Shown piece by piece: positions 41,101 to 64,000 of a DNA stretch of 64,000 nucleotides. The notes below the pieces were generated by a model. It saw only the letters and a list, made by a program, of their open reading frames with translations. It was not told the origin of the DNA and did not search any database. Position numbers and translations under genes: made by a program. How positions within the stretch are numbered: the stretch's first letter is position 1; each line of letters begins with the position of its first letter. This stretch comes from Okamejei kenojei (taxonomy: Eukaryota): contig CM069148.1 of NCBI GenBank assembly GCA_035221665.1, positions 11,656,001-11,720,000 of the forward strand, read 5' to 3'.

Positions 41101-42815
41101 CAGTATTTGAGGGTGGTTGTTAGGAAGGTGGAAATTAAAATTTATTGATGCTAATTATTTATTTTTGCATATCGAGCTATCAAAGCCATTTATCATTCTG
41201 TTCTCATTTATTATTTTTAAGTGATGCAACAGCGCCTGACTTCAATGTCACGTTGAATTGTGATTAGAAATGCTGGAATGCAACATTGTACTGCAGCGTG
41301 ACCCCTCCTCTCCCCGCCCTGCCAGTACTCCTCCCCCACCTCACCCATCCCTGCTGTCTGGATACACATTTTATGCCCTTGAACATATTCAGTGAAGTTT
41401 CACGATTAAAATTATTTTGAGCAATGCCCTGGGATATTTTTACAATTCTACAGCTGCAGAGGTAGTGATAAAATCTATGTTTCTATGTTTCTTATCACTT
41501 CTGTGCAAGGAACAAGGAAGAAGTGAAATTACTCTCTGACTCAACAACTACGATTTCCAAGGAAGACTGGTACATATGACATTGTCCACTGACTAAACTT
41601 TGCTTGGCTGCACCTAGTGAAAATCTGCCAAAAATCCTACGTGATAAAATGCTTTTTAGAATGAGGAACCACAGGAATTATTGAGTTCCAAGTCAACTAG
41701 CCTGACTCTGATGTTATAGGAAGAGGAGAAAAATTTGGAAAGAACATTTAATAGTTCATCAAAAGAATAATATCAATGAAGAAAATTTTATATCATTTTT
41801 ATGTGCAGTACTATTTACGACACCCGTTCAGAAATTTAAACCTGAAGGAGTCTATCATATGTAAAGTGTTCAGGGACCTATTTTTAAGAGTTATGATTCG
41901 GTGGTATACAAATTATTCTTTGGAGATGACATTAAAAAATGTGTTAGGATTTTAATACACAATCAACCATGTTCATTTGACCCAGTGCTAAAATTCAACC
42001 CGAGACCTCATTAACATGATTAATGTCACCGGTCAATGCTAACTCCAAGTTTAGTGCACAATCAATGGGCCTGATTTCATGAATGGGGTGACATTAAGTG
42101 AAGCTATCTAGCACTGATTGAAAACGCCTGTTACAGGGGAATTGCTTTATGGCTGCAGCTGGTGTGCTAGTTATTTCAAGGGTTTAAGAGTTTGTTGGCA
42201 ATTCAGCTGCAAAGCGTTGAGATTGATTGTCTAAGAAAGTTGTTTAGGCTGAGGTTGATGAGGAGCTGAGAAAGGGAGAATCTTTTGTTTTTCATAGAAT
42301 GTCATGATTTCCTTCAGGCAAATAGTCAAACATTAGTGAGAGGAAGCACCAAAGAAGGTCAATGTCAGGAGTCAAATTCCCAAGACATTGTTCAATGTCC
42401 AAAAAACTAGTGATCTCATGGGCATGGCCAAGGTTGGTGCACCATCAATTATAGTAATACAGATAGTGCAGGAATAAGCAGCAGCGGAATGCTAAATGAA
42501 ACTTTGGTAGTATTTTCCTATTTGTATTTAATGAGGTGGAGATAATCTCTTGTTGCATTTAGTTATTATTTTGCCACATGTGGTACCAATGTTCCTGGCA
42601 TTTTATTAGTATATAAGAAACAAAATGTGCATTAAAGGCAGGTTAGGCTTTATTATAGACATTCTGAAGTCCAACAGACACAAGTTTATTCTGTCCAACG
42701 CATCCACATAAGACAACCTGGCAATTCCAGGTATTATAAAAACGAACATTCTCCAAATTACTTCTAATATGTTTGGAGACAAATATCTGCATGATATTCC
42801 AGATGTAGCCTTAAT

Positions 42816-42960
42816 TTTCTTTTTTCATATGGCGTGCACAGCCTAGTTGTAAGACAACTTGTTCTGTTTGATCTTCTGTTTGATCTTCTGGTTGTGCATG
42901 CCAGGTTGATTGCATTCGTCGAACAGAGTGGACCACGTGAAGGTTGCAATCTCCCATCCT
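42816..42960 (-). mobile_element. Short ribozyme-headed retroposon, copy B
   Basis: Perfect 12-bp TSD TGTAGCCTTAAT at 42804-42815 and 42961-42972; A/GAA-rich tail; homologous to 47060-47201 and 61129-61250. Confidence 0.92.
42908..42960 (-). ncRNA. HDV/CPEB3-like ribozyme fold, copy B
   Basis: AGGATGG GA GATTGCA ACC TTCACGT GGT CCACTCT G TTCGA C GAA TGCAATC: P1 with one mismatch, perfect 7-bp P2, P3 ACC/GGT, catalytic-position C at 42918. Confidence 0.8.
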
Positions 42961-43432
42961 TGTAGCCTTAATAATGCCTTATAATACAGAAGCATAACTT
43001 TAGTGGTATTCTGTTCCTTTTGTGCAGTTTATTCGCTGATCCTCATATCTTGATTAGCTGAATGCTCAAAAATGAGAAACACAAGGGTTTGCTAAATACC
43101 CGACTCCTCATACTGTTGCAATGCCCAGAATGTATAGCTTCTCTGCCTTGATGTTTCAGCATCCACTGAGCGCTTCCCTCTCAGAATTTTGTATGTCTCA
43201 ATGAGATCAGTTCACATTCTTCTAAACTTCAGTAAATTTAGACCATTCTTCTGCAATCTGTCCTCCTTGGCTTACACCCTCATTCTAGAGATAATTCGAC
43301 TGAATCTACATTCCATTGACTCTGGGGAAAGGATCCGTCCTTTGGTGTGGAGGCCAAATCTCCCCATCAAATTTCTATTTTAATGTTGTTCAGATTTTAC
43401 TGCATGCAAACACAGTTTACCCCATTACCAGA

Positions 43433-43790: not shown

Positions 43791-44338
43791 CATTACTAGA
43801 GAAACTGCATGTTGAATTAAATATTTTGCAATCACACTTGAAGCTTTTGATTGATTGTAAGGTACAATATGGAAACAAGCCCTTCAGTGCTCTGAGTCCA
43901 TGCCGACCATCGATCATCCATTGACATTAGTTCTGTGTTATTCCACTTTTGCATGCACTCCTTACCCACTAGGGGTAATTATCTTATAATCCCTCGTGTA
44001 TTCTGAGTTTACAATGGAAGAAGGATCATTGACATGTAAAGGAAGATTCTGCATAAATTAAAATGGATTTTACAAGGGGAAATATTAATAAGATCGTGTT
44101 TTTCTCATTCAATTCAAGGTTTCATTAATAAATATGCTAAGATCACACAAGATTCCCTTTTCCCTTTTGTAAAACGTTGGTTGTAAAATAGCTGGTGGTT
44201 TTTAGACAAGTTTAACCAATATTAGCTTTTATTTTAAATTGAATTCAAAATCACATGGCGATAGATGAAATTACACTTCAAGTTTACTAGTCCAGTAACA
44301 TGATGGGTCACTACAATTGATAGAAGTCATTACTTAAA

Positions 44339-44569
44339 GTGTAGGAAAGAACTGCAGATGGTGGTTTAAATCAAAGACTCAAAATGCTGGAGTAATTCAG
44401 CGAATCAGGCAGCATCTCTGGAGCAAAGGAATGGGTTGGAGAGAAGAAATGGGTGACGTTTTGGGTCGAGACCCTTAAGAAGGGTTACCCATTTCCTCTC
44501 TCCAACCTGTTCCTTCACTCTAGAGATGCTGCCTAACCGGCTGAGTTACTCCAGCATTTTGCATCTACC
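44339..44569. mobile_element. Penelope-derived foldback element with 14-bp TSD
   Basis: TSD AGTCATTACTTAAA at 44325-44338 and 44570-44583; inverted arms of about 75 bp around a truncated hammerhead centre. Confidence 0.9.
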
Positions 44570-45171: not shown

Positions 45172-45385
45172 GTTTAGGTTTAGAGATGCAGCGCGGAAAC
45201 AGGCCCTTCAGCCCACCGAGTCCGTGTCGACCAGCGATCCCCGCACGTTAACACTATCCTACACACACTTCGAGGAATTTACATTTATACTGAGCCAATT
45301 AACCTACAAACCTGTACATCTTTGGAGTGTGTGAAGAAACGGAAGATCTCAGAGAAATCTCATGCGGTCGCAGGGAGAATGTACA
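45172..45385 (-). mobile_element. HE1-type SINE 3' portion
   Basis: Reverse complement of the HE1 tail and core (tttagagatgcagcgcggaaacaggccc..aattaacctacaaacctgtac). Confidence 0.85.
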
Positions 45386-46394: not shown

Positions 46395-46680
46395 TCATGC
46401 AGAGTGGAAACAGGCCCTTTGGCCCACTGAGTCCACACTGACCATCAATCACCCATTCACACTGGTTCTATGTTATCCCACTTTCTCATCCAGTCCCTAC
46501 ACGTCAGGGGCAATTTACAGCAGCCAATTAACCTATAAATCTGCACGTCTTTGTGATGTGGGAGGAACCCCAAGCGGTCACAGGGAAATTGTGCAAACCC
46601 CATACATACAGCACTCGAGGTCAGTATCAAACCCAGAACTCTATGCACTATGAGGCAGCGACTCTACCAGCTGCTCCACT
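46395..46680 (-). mobile_element. Older HE1-type SINE
   Basis: Reverse-complement match running from the tail (ggaaacaggccctttggcccactgagtcc) to the head (tgaggcagcgactctacc). Confidence 0.8.
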
Positions 46681-47059
46681 GGGTTACCGGTCCCTCCCTT
46701 GTTTTTTGGCATCAGTCCAGAGGAAGTTTGGCTTTGGAGATGGTACAGTGTACATTCATCAGGATGATGCAAGAGCGTAGAGTGTTAAATGATGAGAGCA
46801 AAGACTTGGTTTGCATTTTTGAGTTTAGAAGGTTGAGTACTGAACTAATCAAGATATATAAAAATGTTCAAGGAATCATTCAGGCGGCACAGTGGCGTAG
46901 CGGTAGAGTTGCTGCCTCACAGCACCAGAGACCTGGGTTCGATCCTGACTATGCGTGCTGTCTGTACAGAGTTTGTTTACCTGTGTCCACATGTGTTTTC
47001 TCCGGGTGTTCCAGTTTCCTCCCACATTCCAAAGACATACAGGTTTGTAGGTTAATTGG

Positions 47060-47113
47060 GGGGTGGGGGATTGCAACCTTCACGTGGTCCGCCCTGTTTC
47101 GACGAATGAAATC
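47060..47113 (+). ncRNA. HDV/CPEB3-like ribozyme fold, copy A
   Basis: P1 GGGGTGG(47060-66)/CCGCCCT(47089-95) with a leading G.U pair; P2 GATTGCA(47069-75)/TGAAATC(47107-13, one mismatch); P3 ACC/GGT; L3 TTCACGT; J4/2 C(47103)GAA. Confidence 0.82.
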
Positions 47114-47201
47114 AACCTGGCGTGCACAATCAAGTAAGATCAAATAGACCTAGTTGTCCTACAACTTTAGGCTGTGCACGCCATACGCAAGGAGAAGAAG
47201 A
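47060..47201 (+). mobile_element. Short ribozyme-headed retroposon, copy A
   Basis: TSD AGGTTAATTG at 47049-47058 and 47202-47211 (11 bp with one mismatch if the next base is counted); (GAA)n tail; it splits an HE1 SINE. Confidence 0.93.
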
Positions 47202-47553
47202 AGGTTAATTGACCTTGGTAAGTTGTAAGATTGACCCTGGTGTGTAGGATAGTGTTATTCTACGGGGTGATCGCTAGTCAGTGTGGACTCGGTGTGCCGA
47301 AGGGCCTGTTTCTGCGTTGTATCTCTAAAGTCTAAAGAATTTAACTGGAAAGATGCAGAACAGTGATTTGTTCTGGGGATAGTCCAACATAATCAAGAAA
47401 TATGATCAGGAAACTATTTTCAGCACATTTAGACGTGAGGGGGTCTAGGAAGTTTGACACTTGCTATTCTTGAATTCAATGATGATGAAGCAATTTAAAG
47501 TTTTATGATTCAGGTTGTTAGATTTTTAAGGGGCAAGGATTTCAAGGAAGTAA

Positions 47554-56786: not shown

Positions 56787-57052
56787 CTTAGTTTAGCTTA
56801 GATTAATTTAGCTTAGTTTAGTTTAAAGATGTGGAAGCAAGGTCCTTTGACACACTTTATCCACGCCGACAATCGATCAGCCATACACTAGTCCAATTAA
56901 CCTACAAACCTGCATGCCTCTTGAATGTGGGAGAAAACCGGAGAAAACCCACAAAGTCACAGGGAGAAGGTGCAAACTCTGCACAGACAGCACCCGTAGT
57001 CTGGATTTAATCCAATTCTCTGGCGCTGTGAGGCAGCAGCACTACCGCTGTC
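56787..57052 (-). mobile_element. HE1-type SINE with (TTTAG)-like tail
   Basis: Reverse-complement match of tail, core and head (ctctggcgctgtgaggcagcagcactaccgctg). Confidence 0.85.
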
Positions 57053-57539: not shown

Positions 57540-58600
57540 TGTAATTGTACCCTCCTCTACCACCTCTTCTGGCAGCTCTGTCCACGCCACCCTCTGTGTG
57601 GAACAACTGACCCCTCAGATCTCCTCAAATCTTTCCTCTCTTCCCTTAAACCTGTGCCCTTAGCCTGAAGAAGGGTGCAAACCCGAAACGTCTCTCTAAA
57701 TGGGACATGTTGGGCAAGTTAGGCTGAAGGGCCTATTTCTACGCTGTATTACTCTATGACTCTGGATGCTTTCAAGAGAGAGCTAGATAGGACTCTTAAA
57801 AATAGTGGAGTCAGGGGATATGGGGAGAATGCAGGAATGGGGTACTGAATGAGGATGATCAGCCATGATCACATTGAATGGCGGTGCTGGCTCAAAGGGC
57901 CGAATGGCCCACTCCTTCACCTATTGTCTATTGTCTATTGTCTATTGTCTATTGACTATAAGTGTATAAAATTATGAGAGGCATAGATGTAGACAATCAG
58001 AACCTTTTTCCCAGGATGAAAATATCAAACACTAGAACATGGAACATGCTGTCAGGGTTGGTGATCGATGCAGGTCTAACAGTGGCCTGTAAGCGACTGT
58101 TTGATAGGCATGTGTATATGCAGGGAATGGAGGGATATGGATTACATGCAGGTGGATATAATAGATGGTCTTGGACTCATATGCGACATAGACATTGTGG
58201 GCCAAAGGACTTATTTCTATGCTGTTCAATATTCTGTATTTCAGGCCGATGAACTCCCATGATGAGAGGTCATCAACATGACATTAATTTTATTAAACTT
58301 TCTCACAGTTTAGCCAATATCCAGGTGAAGCTGACAATGTTCCTGTCAGGTGTTTGCATTTTACCTGCCTTGATTTATGTAGTTTCCATAGTCTGAAGAA
58401 GCGTCCTGACTATAAATGTTGCCTATTCCTGTTCTCCAGAGATGCTGCCTGACCTTCTGAGTTATTCCAGCACTTTGTGTCGCAATTATTATGTGTTTCC
58501 CATGTACTCCAGAGATGCTTCCTGATCCACTGAGTTACTCAAGTACTTTGTGTCACTTTTGGTAAACCAGCATCTGCAGTTCTTTGTATCTAAGTAATAA
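57540..58600. mobile_element. Pile-up of CR1/HER tails and Penelope terminal fragments
   Basis: CR1 - at ~57540-57660; hammerhead piece ctgaagaagggtgcaaacccgaaacgtc at 57665-57692; CR1 + tails at 57700-57958 ((ctattgt)n) and 57960-58225; PLE ends at 58390-58595. Confidence 0.7.
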
Positions 58601-59130: not shown

Positions 59131-59289
59131 TCACGCTCAAGTCATGTCAAGTCAAGAGTTTGATTGTCATATGCATTGGGACCGGAACAACTTCCAAACA
59201 TTGTTCAAAATGGCAGAACACTGATTAATTTAGAGAAGGAGGATAGTCAGTGGCAAGAGGAGGTTTCTTTGCCCAATTACCTAATTTAG

Positions 59290-59487
59290 CAAAGAACTGC
59301 AGATGCTAGCTTACACCGAAGGTGGACACAAAATGCTCATCACGAAATAACTCAGTGGAACAGGCAGCATCTCTGGAGAGAAGGAATAGGTAAAGAAGGG
59401 TCTCGATCCAAAATTTCACCCATGCCTTCTCTCCAGAGATGCTGCCTGTCCCGCTGAGTTACTCCAGCATGTTGTGTCTATCTTCGA
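59290..59487. mobile_element. Penelope-derived foldback element
   Basis: Arms taactcagtggaacaggcagcatctctggagagaagg / ccttctctccagagatgctgcctgtcccgctgagtta. Possible decayed TSD acctaatttag / acctgattcag. Confidence 0.8.
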
Positions 59488-61128: not shown

Positions 61129-61250
61129 ACTTCTTCTTCTTGCATAAAGTTGTAAGTCAACTGATTATATTTGATCTCGTTTGTGGATGTCGGGTTGATT
61201 GCATTAGTCGAAACAAGGTGGACCACGTGAAGGTTGCAATCTCCCACTCC
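61129..61250 (-). mobile_element. Short ribozyme-headed retroposon, copy C (internal 3' deletion), inserted in the Rex1-type LINE
   Basis: Perfect 10-bp TSD AGCAGAGGCA at 61119-61128 and 61251-61260; tail GCAAGAAGAAGAAG. Confidence 0.9.
61197..61250 (-). ncRNA. HDV/CPEB3-like ribozyme fold, copy C
   Basis: GGAGTGG GA GATTGCA ACC TTCACGT GGT CCACCTT G TTTCGA C TAA TGCAATC: perfect P2 and P3, P1 with one mismatch, J4/2 CUAA with the C at 61207. Confidence 0.8.
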
Positions 61251-62898: not shown

Positions 62899-63010
62899 GG
62901 GTCTGAAGAAGGGTCTCGACCCGAAACATCACCCATTCCTTCTCTCCAGAGATGCTATGCTGCCAGTCCCGCTGAGTTACTCCAGCAGTTTGTGTTTACC
63001 TTTGATATTT
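62899..63010 (+). mobile_element. Penelope-derived terminal fragment with hammerhead motif (62899-62934)
   Basis: gggt-CTGAAGA-a-GGGTC-tc-GACCC-GAAA-C-ATC-accc, where gggt/accc can form helix I, followed by the conserved terminal segment. Confidence 0.8.
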
Positions 63011-64000
63011 CAGGCAGTCCTTTTTTCAACAGTACTGTTTTGTCAGAGATTTTGGTGAAATGTTAGATTGTGCCTCTGTCATGGTGATGCTAAATATTCC
63101 AAGGCATCATTTGAAAGAGAATAAGAGCCAAAAAGCAAAGTAAAACTGCATATACTGGGATCTGAAATTGGAATTGCAGTTGTTCTGCTGTTTTGACATA
63201 TTTTCTTCCCTCCGAAGTAAAACACAAATAGATAACATAACTTTTAATCTTATCTCACACTTAAGTGTGAGTCCTTCCTGCAACAGAAGCATTTTTTTGG
63301 AATACATATCTCCAGAAAAATCCAAGAAGTATGACATCTTCACTTTGCTATAAAGATGACAGCTGAAATTGCTTTTTAATAACAAAAATTTAATATTGAG
63401 CAAATTTTCATTATTAACCTAAGCTCTAATTTGTGAATACATTAATACATTACAAATTTAATTAGCAGCTTGTTTGAATGGAGATTTAGCTAGTCTATTT
63501 AGGCTCCAGTAAACGAATGCAAATCCTTGCTCTGCTAGTAATTGTAAAGATTTTGATGTGCTGTAAAACATTATATTTGTGTTCAGTGTGATGGGCAGTG
63601 TTGTAAAATATACAAATGATACTTTTACAAATTAAATAAGCAAGGAGTATCATCTTGCAAAATACTTAGGGCACTAATAGAGGATATGGAAATCTCAATT
63701 CATGAACTCTGCTTATGGTTTGGATTTTTTGAGAAGTGCAATAAAAATAAACAATTCTCCATATCGATCCAAAGATTTGAAAAAAATAAATTAACTGGAA
63801 AATCTAGCAAAAACAATGTTGTTGACCAATTTAATTTTATTCAGGTATACATGGCGCCAAGTTAGTGCAGCAACTTTCAGTGTGGGAAAGGATGGGGGGG
63901 AGGGGAATGCTGGTGGGTGGGGTTGACACAATAATGGAAGTGTGGGTTTGACAGTTCTGCCTGAACAGCTTCAACACCCACAGGTATTATTCATGTGACA

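Follow-up and report, generated by a model that had tools for sequence, protein, structure and literature searches.

We describe here a family of short dispersed elements that is probably best understood as a Vingi-like LINE reduced by internal deletion to a non-coding derivative, headed by a predicted P4-less HDV-like ribozyme that likely frees the element's own 5' end, and moved, likely in trans, by a Vingi reverse transcriptase (RT). The element is ~140 nt long, has no ORF, ends in a simple-repeat GAA tail and is present in ~32,000-37,000 copies (about 35,000) in the genome. Since it has the same head and the same last ~40 bases as a 3.1-kb LINE, named V-f in this work, it corresponds to a SIDE (short internally deleted element).

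The window, i.e., the whole 64,000-nt stretch of DNA that was analysed, contains three copies of the element (A, B and C), which the earlier note had located correctly and which proved to be homologous by full-length alignment. Their features are as follows:

47060..47201, + strand: copy A of the short element, which sits inside another dispersed repeat
47049..47058, + strand: left TSD of copy A, with its right partner at 47202-47211 (10 bp)
47060..47113, + strand: predicted HDV-like ribozyme head of copy A, 54 nt, with a P2 mismatch at 47109
47060..47136, + strand: segment that comes from the parent LINE's 5' end (family V-f) and has 82-88% identity to V-f copies
47137..47158, + strand: linker at the junction, which contains a short tandem duplication; boundaries approximate
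47159..47201, + strand: segment that comes from the parent LINE's 3' end, followed by the (GAA)n tail; identity to V-f ends 87-95%
42816..42960, - strand: copy B, with a 12-bp TSD at 42961-42972 and 42804-42815
61129..61250, - strand: copy C, with a 10-bp TSD, its 3' part carrying a 16-nt deletion

Each copy is flanked by a TSD of its own (10, 12 and 10 bp for A, B and C, respectively), and 3/3 begin at nucleotide 1 of P1, copy A with one extra G at 47059, between the TSD and the element; both observations agree with what had been claimed before. The reported lack of recognisable tRNA A and B boxes was also borne out, as a regular-expression search gave 0 matches in any copy and no tRNA was detected by ARAGORN in the window. 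Nor was any Rfam small-RNA match obtained that would indicate a SINE head derived from tRNA, 7SL or 5S RNA, and the head is LINE-derived. One helix-breaking change was found in each copy (in P2 for A, and in P1 for B and C), as expected of aged insertions. The flanks of copy B were covered by contigs of 4/4 runs (organisms A, B, D and F), with the left flank continuing into the element in contigs of three runs (X5, X7 and X11) and the element into the right flank in contigs of three (X1, X7 and X11); since contigs of other organisms span these junctions, the insertion is common to related organisms. The repeat split by copy A occupies positions 46899-47058 and 47212-47329, recurs in the window at 22312-22478, 45179-45385, 46514-46681 and 56893-57050, and presumably resembles a tRNA-derived SINE. 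A separate, abundant palindromic repeat family is found at 29253-29439, 44329-44567, 58386-58593, 59276-59487 and 62901-63031, and yields sub-threshold microRNA matches in Rfam.

The first lead was a LINE fragment with an RT, which we take to be Vingi-like, in a random sample of the genome, and protein searches then revealed several families. Full-length copies of V-a to V-d start at G1 of the same fold and have longer P4 regions; the 3' ends of V-a, V-b and V-c consist, as in the short element, of a short motif followed by (GAA)n, and V-b has exactly the last 9 nt of the short element and the same tail. These four families were rejected as the direct parent, given that the short element matches them only in its last 9-10 nt, an observation that by itself would favour an independent system of the SINE type, with a head that is a novel ribozyme and just the tail borrowed from a LINE. 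A LINE with the short-element head and a longer P4 was a second rejected candidate (45 + 3 matches): the 30 loci examined from the first set were short-element variants, and 3/3 from the second set were assigned to them on the basis of the matches listed. No LINE came up among the 30, 30/40 and at least 12 loci of the tail-anchored and negative-pattern searches; those based on exclusion patterns missed it because the parent has the very bases that were excluded.

A search for tails with other upstream sequence led to a second deletion variant, whose body matches 25 nt of the V-f 5' UTR. The V-f DNA search gave 45 matches, and 14 of the 30 loci examined among them displayed the short-element head followed by the LINE 5' UTR. 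In 5/18 extended loci (L408, L409, L411, L412 and L413), the head, the endonuclease, the RT-protein homology and the common 3' end occur in this order; L408 spans 3.09 kb and L411 3.04 kb, the latter beginning at G1 and having a TSD. Copy A is 82-88% identical to V-f over its first 77 nt and 87-95% over its last 31-40 nt, and this 3' match was found in five V-f loci that also bear the head. The 3'-derived segment comprises the last codons, the stop and the 3' UTR of the parent, and the final few bases of the junction linker align to the parent 3' end as well; the idea that a hairpin at the junction was an inverted duplication was dropped because the parent itself contains part of this sequence. 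One LINE family accounts for the head, for the ~25 nt that follow it and for the last ~40 nt. The earlier note's undescribed system is therefore not supported, and its independent SINE head is refuted by a parent that matches both ends; we assign this reading a negligible probability. Two of its other suggestions were supported, namely that the element depends on a LINE by way of its 3' end, as the last ~40 nt are the V-f 3' end, and the possibility of a non-autonomous Vingi derivative.

The V-f LINE (3.0-3.1 kb) aligns to residues 1-751 of the 777 of V-b with 33-42% identity, its frames being broken, and a Pfam scan of V-b revealed an endonuclease and RVT_1, with no RNase H match. The Vingi clade is defined by compact elements with a single ORF encoding an APE endonuclease and an RT, and no RNase H (PMC13708176), and the printed 5' end of Vingi-2_Gav displays the same fold, L3 and J4/2. 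Based on this anatomy and resemblance rather than on a tree, the parent is designated Vingi-like. The ESM Atlas yielded generic RT clusters only.

Several other members of the group were recorded. A rarer second V-f deletion variant has another junction, with ~92 nt of the 5' end joined to ~25 nt of the 3' end (loci L339, L343, L345, L357, L358 and L361, around 1410-1540); the two junction types indicate that V-f was shortened in this way on two or more occasions. Another short family, ~200 bp in length, bears TSDs and a GAA tail and matches V-d over its first 172 nt, full P4 included (L306, L310, L311, L313, L315, L317, L320, L321, L323, L325, L329, L332, L334 and L335, at about 1484-1690 in the orientation of the element); the pattern used to detect this family gave 840 matches against 4 for controls, and ~2/3 of the first 100 were V-b/V-d heads. 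The V-e LINE family (L290, L291, L292 and L284) is ~30% identical to the V-b endonuclease and has long open frames and, in 2/3 copies, a GAA tail; on visual inspection, its 5' end shows P1, P3 and L3 of the same fold. Young full-length V-b copies of ~3.2 kb with TSDs were found to have interrupted frames in 4/4 cases (L295, L296, L297 and L298). Copies of V-d on contigs C27, C29 and C398 (L214, L215, L216, L235, L240-L242, L244 and L246) have flanks alike at ~98% identity and thus belong to a larger duplicated unit instead of separate insertions.

The genome-wide abundance of the short element was estimated in two ways. Eight copies were counted in 599 kb without N from 60 position-chosen 10-kb samples, which corresponds to ~37,000 copies (95% interval 16,000-73,000). 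An exact head 20-mer occurs 10,829 times in the genome and a tail 18-mer 8,835 times, compared to 0 for the reversed control of each; as the head 20-mer was present in 10/30 tail-anchored copies, its count leads to an estimate of ~32,000. The density of ~1 per 20 kb given earlier does not extend to the genome, where it is ~1 per 75 kb, and that of the window is thus a local excess. Among the 30 tail-anchored copies, the head adjoins the tail in 27, whereas 5' truncation was seen in 2 and an interrupting insertion in 1. In a pool of 160 copies that includes sets chosen by their head, 99 have an exact TSD of at least 7 bp, with a mode of 11-12 bp; in these 99, no base lies between the TSD and G1 in 61, one in 15 and 2-5 in 23.

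Such 5' ends would also be produced by an internal promoter, and we therefore considered, as the main alternative, a reading with the same parentage in which the head's chief role is that of an RNA polymerase II promoter inside the element, or of a 5' handle used by the Vingi protein, with cleavage weak or dispensable. Transcription of bipartite LINEs probably relies on polymerase II (PMC5786205), and the L1Tc/NARTc head doubles as promoter and ribozyme (PMC4035085). The single extra bases at the 5' junction (n=15) are mostly T (11 T, 3 G and 1 A), which argues slightly against this alternative. Copying of a cap is expected to leave an extra G.

The structure of the head bears on the same question. 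The 54-nt head is likely a self-cutting RNA of the type of the mammalian CPEB3 ribozyme, although unusually small. In the predicted fold, P1 is formed by positions 1-7/30-36, P2 by 10-16/48-54 and P3 by 17-19/27-29, with L3 at 20-26, the P1.1 pair C22-G37, a 6-nt loop instead of P4, and C44 at the catalytic position, which is C47103 as previously assigned. The short P4 pointed out in the earlier note is real, but it is not peculiar to the short element, being already present in the V-f LINE, from which it was inherited. A nested-double-pseudoknot descriptor (at most 1 mismatch) matched two sites in the window, copies A and C, against 0 in 4 shuffles of the 64 kb on both strands; copy B was missed because its first base is A. 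Together with the pairing kept across families, this match sustains the HDV/CPEB3-type fold that had been put forward.

Conservation of the pairing was assessed in alignment A3, built with MAFFT from 10 heads (3 short element, 2 V-a, 2 V-b, 1 V-d and 2 V-c). All 180/180 cells are paired, compared to 37-49% in slid controls, and a two-sided change is present in 12/18 pairs; the covariation score was reached by 0/500 shuffles, figures that overstate independence, since the heads were picked as well formed from four or five lineages, with V-b and V-d having P1 and P2 in common. The P1.1 pair itself changes from C22-G37 to U22-A37 in V-c. The helix covariation sought by the earlier note was therefore found across five families, but not within the short family alone, where no pair changes on both sides. 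Two-sided changes that keep the pairing, including P1.1, would not be needed for a DNA promoter, and we regard a head acting chiefly as a promoter or protein handle as unlikely.

Sequence conservation within the family was studied in a set of 40 copies that were not picked by a head search, although positions 13-31 had to match loosely for a copy to be included. No copy departs from C22 or C44 (40/40), and the consensus base was found in 32 copies for G1, 32 for U36, 39 for U20, 36 for G25 and 40 for C44, positions 20 and 25 lying inside the loosely matched anchor. Hallmarks of HDV-like ribozymes are the G1.U wobble, U20, G25 and the C that opens J4/2 (PMC4836649). Five head columns vary in at least 12% of the copies: J1/2, J4/2 position 2, a loop CpG, a P1 U-A/U.G swap and U29C in P3; that is, three unpaired columns (one of them a CpG), one that keeps its pair and one that breaks it. 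The pair-breaking U29C marks a subfamily of 6/40 copies, and the 6-nt loop, as read off the sequence, permits a 2-bp hairpin occupying G37 and C44; both count against obligatory cleavage, and the amplification of the P3-breaking subfamily is compatible with a promoter-type role of the head.

Comparisons with covariance models were less favourable to the fold, and the Rfam check proposed in the earlier note came out negative, with no HDV or CPEB3 match in a cmscan of the whole window at E<=5. Model RF02682 aligns the heads from G1 to the end of P2, scoring 32.6 and 34.1 bits for V-d-type heads and 14.4 bits (E 1.9) for the short element, all below the gathering threshold of 44, and no Rfam ribozyme match was obtained with the V-a and V-c heads. 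None of the folding z-scores, from a method that omits pseudoknots, was significant. A metagenome scan gave 6 matches in bacterial-looking DNA, which were taken as chance. The low Rfam score of the short element, the z-scores and the possible competing hairpin are what would be expected if the P4-less head were a dead relic of an ancestral Vingi ribozyme, retained since deletion derivatives keep the first bases of the LINE; besides, certain well-folded trypanosome SIDER heads are inactive (PMC4035085). However, P4-less HDV-like theta ribozymes are active (PMC10879173 and a bioRxiv preprint), the autonomous parent has the same short head, and only one of the five variable columns breaks a pair, so that we find a dead relic distinctly improbable.

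Returning to the reading of a mobile, ribozyme-headed LINE derivative, the short element consists of the first ~77 nt of the LINE joined to its last ~40 nt. A host transcript reading through a copy would most likely serve as the RNA source, in which the head would fold and cut 5' of G1 with the help of C44 and Mg2+, as do the HDV and CPEB3 ribozymes, on which this step is modelled (PMC4836649). The Vingi protein would then recognise the RNA 3' end, and target-primed reverse transcription would insert the RNA, generating 11-12-bp TSDs. The helper may have switched from the decayed V-f to the younger V-b, which ends, like the short element, in the same 9 nt and tail: copy-to-copy identity is 87-89% for V-f and 97.5-99% for V-b, and some short-element copies are identical to one another (L004, L006 and L010), which suggests that the youngest were moved by V-b or by another young family.

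The relation to the CPEB3 ribozyme was explored through a by-eye comparison of positions 2-74 of Vingi-2_Gav (PMC5786205 supplement) with the chimpanzee CPEB3 ribozyme (PMC8233481 supplement). The 5' end of this Repbase element and the ribozyme are identical at 52/54 positions outside P4 (38/40 over positions 2 to 41 and 14/14 at the 3' end), the P4 interior being different. It is Vingi-2_Gav, and not the short family, that provides this near-identical match, and no CPEB3-like head was found among 1.7 Mb of loci from this genome. The tRNA-headed SINE2-1_AMi (PMC5786205 supplement) carries a Vingi 5' segment in which the P4 stem arms match the CPEB3 ribozyme and L3 is changed. We lean, with limited confidence, towards a broader proposal, in which Vingi LINEs would generally start with an active HDV-like ribozyme, this lineage would have cut it to a P4-less 54-nt core at ~35,000 sites, and the CPEB3 ribozyme would be a domesticated Vingi 5' end. 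As for published accounts, the main text of PMC8233481 is silent on origin or transposons, CPEB3 is nowhere mentioned in PMC5753468, and no publication joining CPEB3 and Vingi, or giving a source for the CPEB3 ribozyme, was found in a search that took in a minority of subscription papers.

In the same literature, no paper was found on Vingi ribozymes or on an animal genome with a P4-less HDV-like fold, and no mention of Vingi was found in the listed papers on sharks or skates. The list of ribozyme-bearing clades in PMC5786205 comprises R1, R2, R4, RTE and Ingi along with LOA, with Vingi absent from it. The architecture of a ribozyme-headed SIDE is already known; within the literature searched, a ribozyme on Vingi elements, an animal example of a P4-less HDV-like fold and a source for the CPEB3 ribozyme are apparently unpublished. 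Since most subscription papers, Repbase and Dfam lay outside the search, a prior entry for the short family is quite possible. If the head cuts, the genome would hold tens of thousands of self-cleaving sites, and selection would be expected against intronic copies on the sense strand. Vingi-1_Acar has been employed for gene writing, its native 5' UTR included (PMC13708176), so that a ribozyme in it would affect template design. The mammalian CPEB3 ribozyme is 159 million years old (PMC8233481), and the match described above, if it holds, would give it a transposon origin.

Among known systems, the R2 SIDEs of Drosophila likewise combine a 5' HDV-like ribozyme with the 3' end of the parent, lack an ORF and are mobilised in trans, as we infer here (Eickbush and Eickbush, 2012; PMC3414825). 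They are few, are found only in 28S rDNA and have had their cleavage demonstrated (PMC3414825), whereas the short family is dispersed in ~35,000 copies, originates from an APE-type LINE and bears a 54-nt head without a P4 stem, its ribozyme being predicted. The NARTc, RIME and SIDER elements of trypanosomatids (L1Tc/Ingi clade) are also short and dispersed, and keep the ribozyme-bearing 5' end of the Ingi group (PMC4035085), of which Vingi is the sister clade (PMC5786205, PMC13708176). The present family differs from them in its animal host, (GAA)n tail and shorter head; in addition, promoter and ribozyme activity have been demonstrated for L1Tc (PMC4035085), whereas the ribozyme described here is predicted. 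Non-autonomous derivatives have been reported for Vingi itself (Kojima, 2018; PMC5786205), such as Vingi-1_EE, and resemble the short element in being internal deletions of a Vingi LINE (PMC5786205, PMC4494074). Some SINEs use HDV-like ribozymes according to a review (PMC6765202). The minimal HDV-like or theta ribozymes also form a nested double pseudoknot that lacks a P4 domain, but they have been reported almost entirely from gut phages (PMC10879173 and the preprint), whereas here the fold heads an animal LINE and its derivative. Finally, the head shares with the mammalian CPEB3 ribozyme the same core numbering, an identical L3 (7/7), G37-U38 and, in about half of the short copies, the sequence of the 4-nt J4/2 (PMC4836649); the two differ in the sequences of P1, P2 and P3 and in the P4 that the short element lacks, and the CPEB3 ribozyme is a single conserved intronic copy (PMC4836649).
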